A stretch of 24,096 nt of DNA, taken from the IMG/VR virus record IMGVR_UViG_3300048862_000005, positions 1-24,096 of that record; one strand, written 5' to 3'. The stretch is from a virus. Taxonomy: Duplodnaviria > Caudoviricetes. The translations under genes and the position numbers were made by a program. The notes under the pieces are model-generated. The model did not search any database, was not told the DNA's origin, and was given only the letters and a program-made list of their open reading frames with translations. Within the stretch, counting starts at the first letter, position 1, and each line of letters starts with the position of its first letter. Shown here one piece after another: positions 4,531 to 12,474 of this stretch.

Positions 4531-4670
4531 CGCATCAGTCTTTGTCGAAGCATCCAGTGATCGTGAAGTTTGGTTCATGCATCGAAGCAAGCCAGTCGTT
4601 GCGTTTAGCGATGTTGGCAGCCGTCAGCCTGTTTCAGGACGCACCGTCAAACCATTCTGGACTGGTTTGA
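4527..4670 (+). CDS. possible 47 aa hypothetical protein or remnant
   Basis: GTGA overlap with the DnaC-like stop codon and GGGGAG RBS. Confidence 0.3.
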   Translation: MTHQSLSKHPVIVKFGSCIEASQSLRLAMLAAVSLFQDAPSNHSGLV

Positions 4671-4726
4671 GCAGCCCTCTTTGGCTTTGCTGACCGAGAA
4701 ATCGCCGTCCAACCAGGGACACTGAT

Positions 4727-5167
4727 TTGAATTTTTGCGAAGTAAAAATAGCAGAATCCATCACTTTCACCATTGCCGGCGAGCCGGCCGCAAAGGGGCG
4801 GGCTCGCTCGTTCGTTCGCGACGGGCATGTCGCGCACTACACGCCGGAAAAGACCGCCCGCTACGAGAACCTCGTTCGATTAGCCGCGCAACAGGCAATG
4901 GGCAGCACGGCTCCGGTCGAAGGGGCGGTGTCTCTGGTTGTCCGCGCCTTTCTCTCCATCCCGACCAGTTGGAGCCTGAAGAAGCAGCGTGCGGCAGCGA
5001 TGGGTGAAATCAAACCCACCAAGCGCCCGGACCTCGACAACCTCCTCAAGGCGATTGCAGACGGTGCAAACGGCGTGATATGGCGGGACGATTGTCAGAT
5101 TACAGACACGCGAGTCAGCAAACAGTATGGGACGCCTCGCGTCGAAGTGGAAGTGAGAATCAGCTAA
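4727..5167 (+). CDS. rusA: RusA family Holliday junction resolvase (start uncertain)
   Basis: ITFTIAGEPAAKGRAR, KRPDLDNLLKAIADGANG, WRDDCQI motifs. Confidence 0.85.
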   Translation: MNFCEVKIAESITFTIAGEPAAKGRARSFVRDGHVAHYTPEKTARYENLVRLAAQQAMGSTAPVEGAVSLVVRAFLSIPTSWSLKKQRAAAMGEIKPTKRPDLDNLLKAIADGANGVIWRDDCQITDTRVSKQYGTPRVEVEVRIS

Positions 5168-5188
5168 GCTGGATTCGCAAAGAGAAAA

Positions 5189-5779
5189 ATGGATATCCAA
5201 TTCAAGAGCGCGTTCGACGCGGTGCGGTTTGCGCTGTGCTACTCGTCGCAGCAGTACGGCGAGACGCTGATAGCAAAGCGTCTGCGTGGCGAGTTAGTCG
5301 GCAGCGGGATGGGGTTGGTCGGGCTCGATGGCGCGGGGCAGGCGGGGCTCATCCGCCGCAGAATCGAGGAGCTTCCTGAGTTGCATATGTCTGTCATCAT
5401 CGCGCGCGCGGCGCCGCGTGACCTGCCGTGCTCGTGCAGATCGACATGCTGCAGCGGCCGCACACCGAACCTCGAGTGGCGAGCGGCGATTGGTTGGCTG
5501 ACCACCGCGTCCGCTGCATACTGCTCGGGCTTCTCACACTATCGTGTGCGACGAGCCATCATTGAACGTATGTTCGGGGTGAAGTGTGACCTCGCCGATA
5601 TTGCGCACGACTGTACCGTGCATGTAAATACGGTTAGCAAGCAGAATGCGGCGGTGCGCCGCTGGATCGAGGGCGATCGGAAAAACGACAAAGACCCCGG
5701 CGTCGAGCGTGTTGCGTGGTCGGCACTTGAGCGTCGGTTCGATGAGATCAAGCTGTTGAAGCGGGCGGCGGAAGTCTGA
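5189..5779 (+). CDS. putative late-gene regulator (Q-position, Cys-rich with C-terminal HTH-like segment)
   Basis: Last early gene before the late promoter; CSCxxxCC cluster; LADIAHDCTVHVNTVSK HTH-like stretch. Confidence 0.6.
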   Translation: MDIQFKSAFDAVRFALCYSSQQYGETLIAKRLRGELVGSGMGLVGLDGAGQAGLIRRRIEELPELHMSVIIARAAPRDLPCSCRSTCCSGRTPNLEWRAAIGWLTTASAAYCSGFSHYRVRRAIIERMFGVKCDLADIAHDCTVHVNTVSKQNAAVRRWIEGDRKNDKDPGVERVAWSALERRFDEIKLLKRAAEV

Positions 5780-5818
5780 TTTGGCCGCTTGTAATGCTCA
5801 CCGGATTCATCGGGCTGC

Positions 5819-6001
5819 TCATGCAGCTAGCTCTGCTGTTAGCTCTGGGTGGCGCACGATTAGCCGCATCAGGCATAGTACGCCTCCCGGGGTCGTCACT
5901 CGGCCGGTCCGAGATTGGGCTTCGGTCAGCGCCTGTCGCAAATCTGGCAGTGGCTCGCCTGCGTCCGCTTCGATGGCCTTGGCAATTTTTTCCACGTCCA
6001 T
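5819..6001 (-). pseudogene. HigA-like antitoxin apparently lacking its HTH
   Basis: Directly downstream of the toxin; N-terminal MDVEKIAKAIEADAG joined directly to C-terminal PGGVLCLMRLIVRHPEL; only 60 aa. Confidence 0.55.
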
Positions 6002-6002
6002 G

Positions 6003-6298
6003 TCACACTACCTTTTGAATGTCCTTGGGAAGCATGTTCTCTCGCTCGGCTTTGGCATAAACAGCTACGAGCAGCACCGCTTCCTCATCGGCCAGATTGA
6101 AGTAGATTACCCGCGCACCATTGGATTTCCTGTGCCTGCGCGTTTCCAGCGCACCTTGCGCGCTCCATCCGCACCGGGAATCACGTCGCCCACGTCCGCG
6201 TGGTTCGCAATCCAAGCGATGAATTCCAGGCGCTCGTCCTCGGACCAAAGGCGTTCGGCTTGCTTTTGGAAGGTGAGGGTTTCGATGACGGTGCGCAT
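6003..6298 (-). pseudogene. RelE/HigB-2-like toxin, frameshifted
   Basis: MRTVIETLTF...GDVIPGADGARKVRW in one frame, KSNGARVIYF...LLVAVYAK in another; 1-nt loss at about 6128. Confidence 0.85.
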
Positions 6299-6351: not shown

Positions 6352-6380
6352 TTGACAATGTGTGTTTTACACACAATAAT
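6352..6380 (+). promoter_or_regulatory. late promoter (pR'-like)
   Basis: TTGACA-17 bp-AATAAT; spacer contains IR TGTGTGT-TTT-ACACACA (6359-6375). Confidence 0.75.
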
Positions 6381-6465
6381 CCGCAATATTCGATACACGT
6401 CATACGTGCGTCCAAAGTCAGTATAGTGCTAGTTTTGCAACTCTAGCCCCCGTATTCAATCGCAA

Positions 6466-6510
6466 CGAAACCCGCGTGCAGCCCAGTGCTGGCGCGGGTT
6501 TCGCGTTTTC
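6466..6510 (+). terminator. intrinsic terminator after the late promoter (tR'-like)
   Basis: CGAAACCCGCG / CGCGGGTTTCG stem followed by CGTTTTC. Confidence 0.6.
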
Positions 6511-6524
6511 AGCCCCGCTCTTTC

Positions 6525-7943
6525 ATGCGTGATCTGATCGTCAAGAGCTGCCCGATATCGGCGCTGATCCCGTACTGCCGGAATTCGCGCACTCACTCGG
6601 ACGCGCAGGTGGCGCAGATTGCTGCGAGCATCCGCGAATTCGGCTGGACAAATCCGGTGCTAATCGATGGCGAGAGCGGCATCATCGCCGGGCATGGCCG
6701 CGTGCTGGCAGCCCGTAAACTCGGCTTGTCTGAGGTGCCGTGCATTGAAATCTGCGACATAACCGAAGCGCAGAAACGTGCCTATGTCATCGCTGACAAC
6801 AAGCTTGCTGAAAACGCTGAATGGGATAAGGAACTGCTGGCGCTCGAACTCGGCGAACTCAAGGCAGATGGGTTTGATCTCGATCTGATTGGCTTCGATG
6901 CCCTGGAGCTTGGGGAGTTGATCGACCTTGACCGCAGCCCGAATGGACTGCGCAAGCCATTACCATCGCTGGCCGACCGCTTTGGCATCGCACCTTTCTC
7001 CGTGCTCGATGCTCGGCGCAGCTGGTGGACCGAGCGCAAACGCGCATGGCTTAATAGCGGTATTGTGTCAGAAGCGGGGCGCGGTGAATTGCTGACCTTC
7101 GCGCTATCTGCCCAGCCGCCGCGCGTGTACGAGGCAAAGAACCAATACGAAGCAGCTGTTAGCCGCACGGTATCGTGGGAAGAGTTCGCTGAAGCGCAGC
7201 CCGACGCCATAGTGGCAAGCGGCACTAGCGTCTTTGACCCGGTTCTGTGCGAATTGGCCTATCGCTGGTTTTGCCCGCCCGGCGGTCAGATTCTCGACCC
7301 CTTCGCTGGTGGCAGCGTTCGTGGGTGGGTGGCAGCCAAGACCTGTCGCCAATATGTCGGCTGCGACCTTCGTCGTGAACAGGTCGAGAAAAACCACGCA
7401 CAGTGGGATGCAGCGAACCCCGACGACGCAATTAACCCAGTGTGGGTGTGTGGTGACAGCCGCGAGATTGACCGCCATGCCCAAGGGATTGAAGCAGACA
7501 TGATTTTTTCGTGCCCGCCGTATGCTGACCTAGAGGTCTATTCAGACGATCCCGCCGATTTATCGAACATGGGCTACGCTGAGTTCGTTGAGGCCTACCG
7601 TGAAATCATCCGCAAGTCTGTTTCGCTGCTCAAGCAAGACCGCTTTGCCTGCTTTGTGGTTGGCGAGGTGCGAGGCAGGGATGGGGTATATCGCAACTTC
7701 GTCGGCGACACCATCCAGGCATTCATTGATGCGGGAGCAAGCTACTACAACGAAGCGATTCTGGTAACGAACATCGGATCGTTGGCAATACGCGCCGCTG
7801 CGGGATTCACCAAGAGTCGCAAGTTTGGAAAAACGCATCAGAACGTGCTTGTGTTTGTAAAGGGCGACGCGAAAGCGGCAACTGCTGCGTGCGGTACCGT
7901 GGAAGTTGATCCCGCGCTATTCGAGGCCGAAGCGGTCGAGTAG
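6525..7943 (+). CDS. ParB/Srx N-terminal domain fused to an amino-type DNA methyltransferase
   Basis: NSRTHS..QIAASIREFGWTNPVLID..IIAGHGR (ParB-like); SAM motif LDPFAGGSVRG; catalytic-like SCPPY. Confidence 0.85.
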   Translation: MRDLIVKSCPISALIPYCRNSRTHSDAQVAQIAASIREFGWTNPVLIDGESGIIAGHGRVLAARKLGLSEVPCIEICDITEAQKRAYVIADNKLAENAEWDKELLALELGELKADGFDLDLIGFDALELGELIDLDRSPNGLRKPLPSLADRFGIAPFSVLDARRSWWTERKRAWLNSGIVSEAGRGELLTFALSAQPPRVYEAKNQYEAAVSRTVSWEEFAEAQPDAIVASGTSVFDPVLCELAYRWFCPPGGQILDPFAGGSVRGWVAAKTCRQYVGCDLRREQVEKNHAQWDAANPDDAINPVWVCGDSREIDRHAQGIEADMIFSCPPYADLEVYSDDPADLSNMGYAEFVEAYREIIRKSVSLLKQDRFACFVVGEVRGRDGVYRNFVGDTIQAFIDAGASYYNEAILVTNIGSLAIRAAAGFTKSRKFGKTHQNVLVFVKGDAKAATAACGTVEVDPALFEAEAVE

Positions 7944-8187: not shown

Positions 8188-8622
8188 ATGCCTGGAGTCA
8201 AAGGTAAATCAGGCGGAAAACGACCCGGCGCAGGGCGTGGGCCTTTCAAACCGACCGAAGAGCAACGCGATTTGGTAATGCAGTTGGCCGCCTTCGGTCT
8301 GCGCCATTCGGAAATCTGCCTGCTCATCAAGGGTGCTAATGGCAGGCCGATCAGTGAGCCGACGATGCGAAAAAATTTCGCTATTGAACTCGATACAGGA
8401 AAGCTCAAAGCCAACGTCAAGGTGGCGCAGACGCTCTACAAGAAAGCCATCGCGGGTGACAGGACTTCGATTATTTTCTGGTTAAAAACGCAAGCTGGCT
8501 GGAAAGACACGCAGCGCGTCGAGTTGACGGGTAACAATGGTGGACCGGTGCAGTCGATCTCCACCGTGACAAGCGATCCGATTGAGGCCGCGAAGGTGTA
8601 TATGAAGATGATGAAACCGTGA
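8188..8622 (+). CDS. terS: terminase small subunit
   Basis: GGKRPGAGR N-terminus, IIFWLKTQAGWKD, VELTGNNGGPV motif; upstream of terL. Confidence 0.8.
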   Translation: MPGVKGKSGGKRPGAGRGPFKPTEEQRDLVMQLAAFGLRHSEICLLIKGANGRPISEPTMRKNFAIELDTGKLKANVKVAQTLYKKAIAGDRTSIIFWLKTQAGWKDTQRVELTGNNGGPVQSISTVTSDPIEAAKVYMKMMKP

Positions 8623-8628
8623 CTGTGC

Positions 8629-9111
8629 TTACGAATGGGTAGAAGCGTGACGAGGCAAATCGCCAGCCAGCCATGCCATGACGCGTTCGTATCGAGTCAT
8701 TTGGACATTGGGCTCCAGATCGAGCCGGACAGCCTCTCCAAAATGTGCCGGATTGTATAGCGCACCGAGCACGACAGAATCCTGCTGTTGGAGCTTATTT
8801 AATTCTTCGTGCAATTGCTCATTGGTGAGGGAACTCGCACGCGCATACAGGGCATCGTAAGCTGCCCGTTGCAGGTTGGCTTGTACGGCTCTCGTCGCTG
8901 GCTGATAAACGATTGTAAAGCAGGTAATTGCACATAGCATCACGGCAATCGAATACTGCAACCAGGACGCGACGCCGGCAAAGATCGATGCGCTGAGAAA
9001 GAGCGTCAGAAATGACGCGCCCCGATCGACTCGTCCAAGTAGGGTTGCGGTCATACGCTCCAGGCGAGCGGACAGGCAAATTTGAAAGATCAGTTCGGGG
9101 CGCGTCATCAT
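8629..9111 (-). CDS. two-TM membrane protein, SLATT-like accessory (moron)
   Basis: Two adjacent hydrophobic segments followed by a helical cytoplasmic tail; opposite strand to the late operon. Confidence 0.7.
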   Translation of the reverse strand: MMTRPELIFQICLSARLERMTATLLGRVDRGASFLTLFLSASIFAGVASWLQYSIAVMLCAITCFTIVYQPATRAVQANLQRAAYDALYARASSLTNEQLHEELNKLQQQDSVVLGALYNPAHFGEAVRLDLEPNVQMTRYERVMAWLAGDLPRHASTHS

Positions 9112-9255: not shown

Positions 9256-9302
9256 GTTTTTCTCCTGATAGGGTTAAAAGGGTCACACCAGAATCCTATC
9301 AT

Positions 9303-9332
9303 GCTCGCGCCGGGTAACTGGCGCGGGCTTTT
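9303..9332 (+). terminator. terminator hairpin preceding repeat unit 1
   Basis: GCTCGCGCCGG-GTAA-CTGGCGCGGGC-TTTT. Confidence 0.6.
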
Positions 9333-9666
9333 CCATTACGCATTACAGCCGATTCCGTTTCCTCATGGTTTTTGCAATTCTGATTATGTGCAGGTATTCG
9401 AATAGTGGGCATAGCGGCTGAGCGAAAGTCAGCGGGCTTATTGTGTGATCGACTCTTAAGCCATCCAGACCGTCAGGTCGCCGACCAGGACAAGCCGGCG
9501 AGTGTACGCAACAACCCCGGCAGTGCGTCAAGCTCTGATCCTTACGGCAAGGACGCACCGCTGACCCGGCTTGAAGGGTATGAACGTGTAGTAATCACCA
9601 AAAAGTCATCGTAAAAGCGAAAGCCCCGACCGCTGCTAACGGTTCGGGGCTTTCTTGCATCAACCC
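9320..9666 (+). repeat. repeat unit 1: degenerate terL 5' copy (9347-9423), structured segment and hairpin
   Basis: Aligns by eye with about 10365-10700 and with terL 10879-10956; ATG lost and two TAG stops (9403, 9412). Confidence 0.9.
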
Positions 9667-9691
9667 TCTGGAACAATCAGAAGGAAGGCAT
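9612..9691 (-). ncRNA. predicted cis-antisense sRNA against peptide P1 leader
   Basis: Minus-strand extended -10 TGcTAAAAT (hexamer 9703-9698), 17 bp from CCGCAA; ends at hairpin 9619-9654 followed by a U-rich tail. Confidence 0.5.
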
Positions 9692-9693
9692 AG

Positions 9694-9837
9694 GTGGATT
9701 TTAGCAAACTCATTAGGGAGTTGCGGATGATGTTGAAGGAAATGCCAGCTCAAAGGTTTTGGGCGCTATGGATTGTGGCGCTGTGCTTCGGGGTGGGGTA
9801 TCTCGCTAAATCCGTCAGCCTTTTCTTTGAACATTAA
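9694..9837 (+). CDS. small hydrophobic peptide P1 (VDFSKLIRELRMMLKEMPAQRFWALWIVALCFGVGYLAKSVSLFFEH), type I toxin-like
   Basis: GTG 9694 with AAGGAAGG RBS; alternative ATG 9727 with AGGGAG RBS; single TM segment. Confidence 0.65.
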   Translation: MDFSKLIRELRMMLKEMPAQRFWALWIVALCFGVGYLAKSVSLFFEH

Positions 9838-9909
9838 GTGTGAAGTCGGTCGCAACGACGATTCCGGAAAACGGAAGCGATCTCGTATCGGCTAAAGATA
9901 GACGCGAAG

Positions 9910-10041
9910 ATGAATTCAACCGATGCTGGCATTGTAGCGCGCAGACTGGCTAATGCCGCATTGATCCTAGCAGCCGGGGCCTTTTGCTTTGGGTTTGGTT
10001 CCGGTATCGGCTACATCGTACACGCGATTCGCTGGTGGTAG
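9910..10041 (+). CDS. small hydrophobic peptide P2 (MNSTDAGIVARRLANAALILAAGAFCFGFGSGIGYIVHAIRWW)
   Basis: 43 aa, TM segment, C-terminus VHAIRWW shared with P4. Confidence 0.55.
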   Translation: MNSTDAGIVARRLANAALILAAGAFCFGFGSGIGYIVHAIRWW

Positions 10042-10047
10042 TTGCAA

Positions 10048-10164
10048 ATGATGTTGAAGGAAATGCCACCTCAAAGGTTTTGGGCGATCTGGCTGCTTGG
10101 CTTGTTGTATTTCTCAGCCAAATTCCTTGATGCGCCCGTTATCGTTTCGTGGTTGAGCCGATAA
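10048..10164 (+). CDS. small hydrophobic peptide P3 (MMLKEMPPQRFWAIWLLGLLYFSAKFLDAPVIVSWLSR)
   Basis: 38 aa; first 45 nt or so nearly identical to P1 9727-9771. Confidence 0.55.
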   Translation: MMLKEMPPQRFWAIWLLGLLYFSAKFLDAPVIVSWLSR

Positions 10165-10364
10165 AAAGCCAAGATTGACGCAAGCATGACCAGAACAGTG
10201 CAAGAACAGCAAGGACCGAGCGGCAAGCCGTTTATCAAAGGGTAAGCAAATTGGATCTGATCTCCGCGTGCCAGGCCAAGACGCCGATGTGTTTGGGGGA
10301 TGGAGTTCATCATGACCTAAGGCAGTCGATGAGTGCCCTCAACCGAGCCCGCATCAGGCGGCTT

Positions 10365-10700
10365 ACGTGGGCTTTTACATACCCTCGTTACATGCCGATT
10401 CCGTTTTCTTATGATTTCCGCAATCCTGATTATGTGCAGGTGTTCGAATGGCGGGCGGAGCGACTAGGCGAAAGCCAGCGGGCTCTTTTACGGTCATCCA
10501 GAACGCCAAGTCGTAGGCTAGGGCAAGCCGGCGAGTGCCCGCAACAACCCGGGCAGTACATCATGCCTTTCTCCTGGCCTGCAAGGATGCACCGCTGACC
10601 CGGCGTAAAGGGTATGAACGTGTAGTAACCACCAAAAAGTTGTCATAAAAGCGAAAGCCCCGAGCCGTTGGTAGCGGTCGGGGCTTTCTTGCATCAACCC
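10365..10700 (+). repeat. repeat unit 2: terL 5' copy (10392-10469), structured segment and hairpin
   Basis: [25 protein letters not shown] versus Ter[26 protein letters not shown]; frame stays open to TGA 10598 (68 aa). Confidence 0.9.
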
Positions 10701-10727
10701 GTTGAAAAAGGCAACGAGAGGATCTTG
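10646..10727 (-). ncRNA. predicted cis-antisense sRNA against peptide P4 leader
   Basis: Minus-strand TTTTAA-17-TATACT (-10 at 10739-10734); ends at hairpin 10653-10688 followed by a U-rich tail. Confidence 0.5.
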
Positions 10728-10864
10728 TGAAGAAGTATACGACATTCTTGAGGGAGTTAAAAATGATCTCCAATGAGCTGAAGCCAACCCGCTATTGGTC
10801 TGTCTGGTTCATCGCGTTCCTTATCGCCGCATCGACTTTTGTGCACGCGATCCGCTGGTGGTGA
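10727..10864 (+). CDS. small hydrophobic peptide P4 (VKKYTTFLRELKMISNELKPTRYWSVWFIAFLIAASTFVHAIRWW), type I toxin-like
   Basis: GTG 10727 with GAGAGGA RBS; alternative ATG 10763 with AGGGAG RBS; same two-start layout as P1. Confidence 0.65.
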   Translation: MKKYTTFLRELKMISNELKPTRYWSVWFIAFLIAASTFVHAIRWW

Positions 10865-10878
10865 AAGAGACGTGAATC

Positions 10879-12474
10879 ATGCCGATTCCGTTTCCCCATG
10901 ATTTCCGCAACCCTGATTATGTACAGGTATTCGAATGGCGGGCGGAGCGGCTGAGCCGGATTCGCGCCAACCCGGCGACGTTGCCTGCGCTGAAAACCTA
11001 CTATCGGGATCACCCTGGGCAGTTCGTCATCGACTGGGGCATGACGTTCGACCCGCGTAATGTCGAGCGGAGGTTGCCCGCGACGATTCCATTTCTGCTG
11101 TTTCCAAAGCAGGAAGCGTGGTGCGACTGGTTCATGGAGCGTTGGAAGGCGCAGGAGCCGGGCATTACGGAGAAGACCCGCGACATGGGCATGTCGTGGC
11201 TGACGGTGGCGCTGGCAGACACGATCTGCCTATTTCACGAGGGGGTGGTAGCCGGTTTCGGCTCGCGTAAGGAAGAGTATGTCGACAAGATCGGCTCGCC
11301 AAAGAGCCTGTTCTGGAAGGCGCGCGAGTTTCTGCGCCTATTGCCCCCAGAGTTCCGCGGTTCGTGGGACATCGGCACACACGCGCCGCACATGCGCATT
11401 ATTTTTCCGGACACCGGGTCAGTCATCACTGGAGAGTCCGGCGACGGCATCGGTCGTGGCGACCGCGCGAGCTTCTATGTCGTGGATGAATCGGCGTTCC
11501 TCGAACGGCCACAACTGATCGACGCGTCGCTGTCGGCGACGACGAACTGCCGACTGGACATCTCGACGCCGAACGGCATGGGCAATTCGTTTGCACAGCG
11601 CCGGCATAGCGGCAAGATTGCTGTGTTCACATTCCACTGGCGCGACGATCCGCGCAAGGATGACGCGTGGTATGCGAAGCAGTGCGCCGAGCTCGACCCG
11701 GTCATCGTTGCGCAGGAGATCGACATCAACTACGCGGCATCCATCGAGGGCGTCGTAATCCCGTCAGCATGGGTGCAAGCGGCGATCGGCGCGCACCTGA
11801 AGCTTGGCATCGAGCCAAGCGGCTTGCGGCGCGGCGGACTCGACGTTGCCGACGAGGGCAAAGACAAGAATGCATTTGCGGGCCGCTACGGGTTTCTGCT
11901 GAACTTCCTGCGGTCGTGGTCAGGCCGCGGCGGCGACATTTACCAGACGGTCGAACGCACGTTCGGCATCTGCGATGAGCTTGGCTATGAGTCGTTCGAC
12001 TACGATGCTGACGGGCTTGGCGCAGGCGTGCGCGGCGACGCACGCGTCATCAACGAGCAACGCATCGCCGCTGGCAAGCGACCGATCAATGACGAGCCAT
12101 TTCGCGGGTCAGGGCCGGTCCACGATCCGGAGGGCGAGATGGTCCCGGAACGGAAGAACAAGGACTATTTCGCGAACCTCAAGGCGCAGTCGTGGTGGGC
12201 GCTGCGGTTGCGCTTTCAGGCCACATACCGCGCGGTCGTTGAAGGTATGCATTATGACCCCGACGAAATCATCTCAATCGACCCGGCGCTGCCGGAGTTG
12301 ACCGCGCTCGTAATGGAATTGTCGCAGCCGACCTATACCGTCAACGGTGTTGGAAAAATCGTGATTGACAAGACGCCGGAAGGCACGAGATCGCCTAACC
12401 TGGCTGATGCCGTCATGATCGCATACCAGCCGGCCGGACAGGCGCTAGACATCTGGACAAGGTTGGCAAGATGA
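10879..12474 (+). CDS. terL: terminase large subunit
   Basis: Walker A-like [10 protein letters not shown], Walker B YVVDE, ISTP coupling motif, nuclease GLDVAD and C-terminal SPNLADA. Confidence 0.95.

Follow-up and report, generated by a model that had tools for sequence, protein, structure and literature searches.

The 24,096-nt window analyzed here, to which all coordinates refer, spans positions 1 to 24,096 of the virus record IMGVR_UViG_3300048862_000005 and carries an intact gene for the large terminase subunit, terL (10879–12474, plus strand; phrog_2, E 1e-27; matching relatives at up to 92%), preceded by an array of repeated units in which the start of the same gene occurs twice more. 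A first-pass annotation had noted this triplication, and it holds: the terL start (10879–10956) recurs at 10392–10465 with 90.5% identity over 74 nt (E 2.6e-25) and at 9348–9423 with 85.5% identity over 76 nt (E 5.8e-21), and the next-best match within the window has an E value of 0.017. Also as described there, copy 2 (10392–10469, plus strand) has kept its frame, which continues as a fused open reading frame (ORF) to 10598, and 23 of its first 25 residues are identical to TerL, with 6 synonymous and 2 non-synonymous changes, and copy 1 (9347–9423, plus strand) has lost its start codon (the T of ATG is missing) and is interrupted by stops at codons 20 and 23. Each extra copy follows a GC-rich terminator-like hairpin ending GGGCTTTT, again in agreement with the first reading, at 9303–9333 for copy 1 and at 10345–10377 for copy 2 (both plus strand; −23.5 and −13.4 kcal/mol), the latter also being present in the related prophage G002. 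A promoter-like site lies just 5′ of the copy 1 hairpin (9274–9302); such sites number 3 against 1.8 expected, that is, not above chance, and the conserved promoter is the antisense one described below. On its 3′ side, copy 1 is fused to the right half of a terminator, H′ (9424–9443, plus strand), and to the shared segment of unit 1, the main homology block (9444–9612, plus strand). In unit 2 the right half of H′ and the shared segment together span 10470–10646 (plus strand).

The shared segments of the two units are 81% identical and end in hairpins at 9619–9654 and 10653–10688. The conservation and the terminal hairpin had been recognized correctly, but a fold more stable than that of shuffles is limited to the last ~80 nt, where the minus strand forms two stem-loops followed by a U-tract (z −4.9 and −5.3), the first 150 nt showing none (z 0.0 to −1.2). 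In an alignment of the 150-nt part, 94.9% of cells are paired (0 of 500 shuffles) and two-sided changes occur in 4 of 30 pairs (47 of 500), so that covariation is weak. Read as the end of a protein gene, the segment has an open frame in several copies and a shifted or stopped one in unit 2 and others, and a tRNA origin was rejected, given that none of 8 related loci has a tRNA. No Rfam family reached its cut-off for the array, the best for the segment being Proteo-phage-1 (E 1.2). The predicted antisense RNA of unit 1 (9613–9706, minus strand; ~79 nt) has an extended −10 box at 9698–9706, a 5′ stem-loop near 9667–9681 and the 9619–9654 hairpin with its U-tract as terminator; that of unit 2 (10647–10739, minus strand; ~81 nt) has its −10 at 10734–10739 and the 10653–10688 hairpin as terminator. 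The minus-strand −10 box lies within codons 2–4 of the peptide gene that follows, and the 5′ loop of the predicted RNA differs between the units. What had been called structured RNA is predicted to be mainly this two-hairpin antisense RNA, which lies over the ribosome site of the peptide gene.

Hydrophobic peptide genes do follow the units, as first annotated, but there are four rather than two, and those behind units 1 and 2 are homologous (both phrog_6632) rather than unrelated. All four are intact and on the plus strand: the 47-amino-acid (aa) A1 (9694–9837; phrog_6632, E 1.8e-14; hydropathy 1.86), the 43-aa B, ending IRWW (9910–10041; phrog_12997, E 4e-4), which in the window lacks a hairpin leader of its own, the 38-aa A3 (10048–10164; phrog_6632, E 0.003) and the 45-aa A4, also ending IRWW (10727–10864; phrog_6632, E 1e-8). 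With lengths of 38–47 aa (<60 aa), a best 19-residue hydropathy of 1.5–1.9 and a net charge of +2 to +5, the peptides have a size, charge and single hydrophobic stretch that suggest action at the inner membrane. Searches of Pfam, NCBIfam and PADLOC matched no known toxin family, the protein database returned only the self-match, atlas matches stayed below 0.9, and phrog_6632 and phrog_12997 are families without function annotation. The peptide of Escherichia coli phage Rac-SA53 matches phrog_6632 as well (E 2e-28); its cassette is identical to that of Actinobacillus phage vB_Apl-pPE4 (L082/L083), including shared coordinates of the neighbor genes, and one of the two host labels may be wrong.

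The combination of hairpin, antisense promoter and peptide recurs in other phages. A scan with a family pattern yielded 123 loci from 23 of the 64 parts of the viral collection; the pattern has ~330 matching stretches in the viral collection, and about half of the distinct matches examined fit the cassette. Among the 109 distinct matches with at least 120 nt downstream, a minus-strand −10 lies 37–53 nt behind the hairpin in 50, compared with 4, 5 and 7 in three control windows, and it is present in 35 of the 38 matches picked by the second stem and ribosome site alone versus 15 of the 71 others. By a count made by eye and including many close kin, 25 of the 50 carriers lead into 38–56-aa peptides ending RWW and ~10 more into similar hydrophobic ones. 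Two-sided (compensatory) changes occur in 4 of the 13 pairs of the terminator stem, one of these pairs being affected in 15 of 29 sequences; the arms of the second stem are interchangeable and its loop is variable. A 29-member model gives 59.6 bits to the copy in phage H-19B (a relative of which was in the training set), nothing at 7 control loci, and 16.4 bits to P22, on the terminator. In H-19B the cassette is unannotated and sits between R and Rz; it matches 61 phage records, many Stx phages among them, and the hairpin–peptide part is also found in lysis regions and between tail genes. In the literature we found no description of this cassette or of the array, in a search whose reach stopped short of supplementary small-RNA (sRNA) tables that may list the RNA (e.g., PMC4104026, with 55 island sRNAs). 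The 24B_1 RNA of phage 24B was rejected as a match: it comes from another locus and, as far as its published description goes, lacks an intrinsic terminator. A second family (L269, L306, L310, L313 and L325) has a similar terminator with a minus-strand −10 ~65 nt behind it and is probably another antisense cassette.

Seven distinct related prophages (G001, G002, G003, G004, G005, which equals G009, G011 and G012) allow the array to be compared. All seven carry, before the small terminase gene terS, a leader made of a promoter-like region, terminator, shared segment, hairpin and cargo, with one to three hairpins; the cargo consists of peptides A and B, insertion sequences (IS), antitoxin genes of the HicB and RelB types alongside their partners, and a 364-aa ORF that converges with one of 106 aa. 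The window-type terL start is found in five of them, in G001, G002, G005 and G012 at full length and in G011 as 15 nt only; G003 and G004 lack it, as do most hairpin units in the relatives. The triplication is hence no one-off duplication in a single genome, and the idea of a cassette-acquisition hotspot stands in that copy number, order and cargo vary across the seven prophages, whereas the proposed tie of the unit to terL falls, given that in relatives it lies before terS, mostly without a terL piece. Outside Mycetohabitans the segment was not found, with 29 of 396 genomes of the family matching and 5 left unscored; among those 29, the non-Mycetohabitans matches concern the hairpin, peptide or terL part only. 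Most matches to the segment pattern are short chance matches, and L383 was set aside as one of these. At three loci (L195, L196 and L231) a second cassette, made of a single hairpin and peptide A4, lies ~18–20 kb downstream in the same prophages, as a reservoir for exchange.

We consider it probable that the late operon begins here with a repeatedly reshuffled array of small cassettes, with the extra terL starts as recombination scars and the hairpin units as predicted sources of an antisense RNA that would silence the peptides. The hotspot itself, as read from these comparisons, is real, repeated and reciprocal. It could be objected that the hairpin does no more than terminate transcription in both directions and that the array is neutral clutter of a decaying endosymbiont with inert peptides; the scars are indeed broken, IS have inserted in the array, and transposons and pseudogenes are reported to abound in the genus (PMC12696581). 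This account is improbable, because the −10 position, the second stem and the RWW ending recur across distant phages, including those of free-living hosts, and because all four window peptides are intact.

The junctions suggest how a terL start could have entered the array. In all six full-length terL pieces in the window and relatives, codon 26 is the last and is followed by the right half of H′, a terminator with a GAAA loop that is intact in three chromosomal remnants, where it lies after a promoter matching window 6352 and before the shared segment. The right junction is single and the left contexts are three. Codons 24–26 of terL and the left arm of H′ share ~7 nt, which we infer to be enough for one illegitimate crossover. 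Such a crossover at the ~7-nt microhomology, between terL codons 24–26 and the left arm of this late-leader terminator, would yield a terL start fused to half a terminator, then segment, hairpin and peptide, in front of a full terL. Alternatively, the breakpoints could be pac cut sites, duplications being seeded where terminase cleaves or forms a synapse close to the starts of terS and terL. The scars are starts of packaging genes, two different inserts join a terS scar at one point, and amplification around T4 gene 17, as outlined in PMC3012670, offers a precedent. Even so, we give this origin little chance, since microhomology alone explains the junction, terS and terL simply adjoin the hotspot, and a duplicated terL start is absent from all 80 terL relatives examined (the best 80 of 599 in the viral collection), which also led us to reject duplication as a general trait of this terL family. 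The inserts at the terS scar (L190, L194 and L228) are a promoter-region repeat and a HicAB pair, both joined near codon 31, a joint that may mark a preferred breakpoint or a shared ancestor.

Relatives that carry the window-type terL piece have a terL of their own of the phrog_38 or a third type, and an intact window-type terL was found in none of the 5 genomes searched. Conversely, terS scars lie upstream of the intact terS start in four relatives, and the window has one too, missed by the earlier reading: the degraded 5′ end of a terS from another phage type (that of G003/L001), at 10186–10289 (plus strand), with a 37-nt deletion relative to G002. Window-type terL starts in the relatives together with a foreign terS scar in the window indicate that phages whose packaging genes are unrelated exchanged DNA in both directions. 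Comparison of the prophages shows the terL piece, the segment, the starts of terS, and the stretches encoding AIRWW and MMLKEMP at work as short shared homologies: through them, prophages that reside in one host and have unrelated terminases exchange, duplicate and delete cassettes. Where an insertion supplies a new gene start, the old one stays behind as a scar. In G011, a deletion joins the first 15 nt of the terL piece to the leader of peptide A4. A Sak4-like annealing protein is the likely catalyst: G005 encodes one (E 1e-86) together with a single-stranded DNA-binding protein (SSB), annealing by Sak4 is described in the literature, and phage recombinases are reported to tolerate short, diverged homology, with 23–27 nt of exact pairing given for Red-beta (PMC3945230).

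The same reciprocity could be turned into an antisense decoy model, in which minus-strand read-through from the antisense or toxin–antitoxin promoters would target the packaging-gene starts of a competing prophage lineage. The window-type terL start is present in phages with another terminase, in many cases together with its ribosome site, their terS start is present in the window, and the minus-strand promoters point towards the scars. However, the hairpin U-tract should stop the antisense RNA, the pieces decay and get deleted, and those in the window also match its own terL as those in the relatives match their own terS, which makes such decoys very improbable.

The decay of the terL pieces separates an exchange history from local duplication. 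The stop of copy 1 at codon 20 and two further derived changes recur in G001 and G012, and a third occurs in G005 or G002 as well; copy 1 differs at 15 positions from copy 2, at 9 from G001 and at 8 from G012. The copies have decayed as first described, but the serial duplication within this genome that was read from a gradient of decay is rejected, as copy 1 is closer to G001 and G012 than to copy 2. The junction of copy 2 is common to G002 and G005, and in G002 the terS relic, hairpin and terL piece run as in the window at 92–95%. We also rejected an assembly artefact, given that the copies are 9–14% diverged and G002 has the same junctions. Judged by shared derived changes, the pieces form two lineages, and these extend across phage boundaries. 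Since the stop codon of copy 1 is common to G001 and G012, the piece was dead before it moved, and with five of the six full-length pieces broken by codon 27 this marks it as a passenger and not a sensor. The first-pass suggestion of a translated leader that senses terminase or late-gene expression and couples the peptides to it is hardly tenable, because, although copy 2 has an open frame with mostly synonymous changes and the piece recurs in five of seven relatives, the frame is not kept across copies (the G002 copy, in the same context as copy 2, carries a stop and three amino-acid changes), the piece is shortened in one relative, absent from two and missing from most units, and copy 2 lacks a purine-rich ribosome site in front of it and sits directly 3′ of a terminator-like hairpin.

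Between the window and the functional terL starts of 35 loci, 397 synonymous and 163 other differences were counted, and the scars differ from one another at 44 synonymous and 60 other sites (42% synonymous; the pairs are not independent), against a neutral estimate of ~27%; the first 14 nt of the piece are nearly invariant. The synonymous excess is what one would expect if the pieces were captured from donors that had diverged slightly and then decayed, and copy 2 alone (6:2) looks recent or converted.

In the third part of the proposed mechanism, a sigma-70 −10 in codons 2–4 is predicted to drive the ~80-nt two-hairpin RNA on the minus strand over the ribosome site, in the manner of P22 sar and ant. 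In the lysogen this RNA would mop up leaky mRNA and so prevent peptide synthesis; once late transcription reads through the terminators, it would outrun the RNA and the peptides would be made. A late transcript must cross several terminators before it reaches terL. The peptides would likely be mild inner-membrane toxins or modulators of lysis or exclusion, by analogy with type I toxin–antitoxin pairs. The leader is also found in G004 and G005, there before a short ORF that overlaps, with its stop, the first codon of the 364-aa gene, so that it behaves as a portable switch. The arrangement is seen at L191, where the 364-aa ORF (4564–5658, plus strand) faces the 106-aa ORF (5685–6005, minus strand), and also at L192. 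No family or PDB match was found; the C-terminal part weakly resembles Lnb_N models, below our bar for naming, and the 106-aa ORF has a lipoprotein-like signal. We take this layout to recall a toxin–immunity pair.

Several observations weigh against the reshuffled antisense array. Many of the 109 pattern matches are close relatives of one another, and the second stem reaches at least 5 bp in 40 of 64 cases versus 19 of 64 controls, a modest excess. The intermediate expected from the first crossover, a cassette directly 5′ of a single window-type terL, occurs at none of the 80 terL loci. The hairpins before the two terL copies are similar to one another, and the scheme does not account for where they came from. 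On the enzyme side, the Sak4 gene comes from G005 and not from the window, which ends before that region, and RecT, ERF and Rad52_Rad22 were looked for and not found. The 42% synonymous share above the neutral ~27%, together with the 6:2 ratio and open frame of copy 2, leaves room for some selection on the terL pieces or for recent conversion. Finally, the putative antiterminator at 5189–5779 owes that role to its position only.

The closest known relative of the cassette is the sar RNA of P22 (RF00262), whose layout within the ant moron is described in PMC12197685 and PMC10732415. At the sequence level both have a minus-strand promoter within the first codons of the target gene, an RNA (here predicted) over the ribosome site and a similar terminator hairpin; according to the P22 annotation, sar ends one base before the ant start and its promoter lies inside ant. 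In contrast, the target here is a phrog_6632 or phrog_12997 membrane peptide rather than an antirepressor, the predicted RNA is ~80 nt long compared with 68–69 for sar, and no arc or mnt, unlike in the P22 arc–ant operon, was seen at the window cassettes. The window units score 22 and 19.6 bits with RF00262, under the cut-off of 43. Hence, the cassette likely works like sar without being a member of that family.

The array also resembles the moron site behind the lambdoid late promoter PR′, with its variable cargo and convergent small RNAs (PMC4104026): variable cargo and, here predicted, convergent small RNAs lie behind a late promoter and terminator. It differs in its tandem homologous cassettes and in gene-start scars that reach the terS–terL gap, and its RNAs are predicted to be cis-antisense over a ribosome site, whereas those of the PR′ site are trans-acting anti-sRNAs. 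As for a moron, the insertion lies between genes that are adjacent in relatives, 52 of the 80 terL relatives having a long ORF with its end near the start of terL and none a hairpin upstream. Type I toxin–antitoxin systems, as covered in PMC2887945 and PMC8309996, likewise pair a small hydrophobic peptide with a cis-antisense RNA (here predicted) whose loop differs between copies; unlike them, the cassette has no known-toxin match, no dedicated sense promoter was found, and its leader is shared with the 364-aa gene. Mosaicism of temperate phages by relaxed homologous recombination, as presented in PMC3945230, likewise involves co-resident prophages and short diverged homologies, although its enzymes are Rad52-like rather than the Sak4-like one found here, and the homology arms here include dead gene starts. 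The array is not integron-like, given that its junctions lie in several different shared sequences and that no integrase is among the array ORFs listed.

A bolder version would make the locus an integrase-free array of antisense-switch and RWW-peptide units with dead terminase starts as recombination arms, belonging to an undescribed, pan-proteobacterial family of late-gated, type I toxin–antitoxin-like systems in which variable RNA loops insulate the copies and which fires upon antitermination by a related phage or a stop in host transcription; we regard this as tentative and rather unlikely as a whole. The terL triplication is in itself a clear record of cargo trade between temperate phages with unrelated packaging genes, in which a dead 78-nt gene start can be traced, stop codon included, through several prophages. 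The cassette family matters more than the terL copies. Should the antisense RNA and a phenotype of a peptide be confirmed, a P22 sar-type switch, known for one antirepressor, would become a general portable control of small membrane proteins in late operons, and phrog_6632 and phrog_12997 would gain a testable role.

The host is likely Mycetohabitans, a fungal endosymbiont, with the window as a prophage of it: parts of the left 9.3 kb match all five searched genomes of one genus, mostly at 86–95%, and the top match of the protein at 5189–5779 (plus strand), a DNA-binding protein in the Q position, is a Mycetohabitans ‘DNA-binding protein’ (93%). Profile searches assigned this protein to no Pfam, PHROG or convincing NCBIfam family. 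A candidate late promoter (6352–6415, plus strand) was placed by alignment with the three chromosomal remnants, in which its sequence runs directly into H′ and the shared segment. Just 5′ of it, a broken HigBA/RelE-type toxin–antitoxin pair (5819–6298, minus strand; phrog_5869, weak MqsA match) occupies a place where the three remnants also have an antitoxin-like gene. Between late promoter and terS the window carries a ParB–methyltransferase fusion (6486–7943; phrog_498), at the position where remnants of its phage type have H′ and the shared segment. In the other phage type, inverted and direct repeats (L001:2700–2760) lie just upstream of the late promoter and may be a regulator site.

The terS cognate to the window terL (8188–8622, plus strand; phrog_309, E 1e-15) has homologues directly 5′ of terL in relatives. 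Other terL relatives show a gap between terS and terL, in some cases with an extra ORF, so the gap appears to tolerate insertions. In the window, a 160-aa gene (8629–9111, minus strand; phrog_6315, E 1.6e-25) is inserted between terS and the array; it has 10 homologues, the named ones all being ‘hypothetical’, and an imperfect 27-nt inverted repeat lies within its start (9012–9108).

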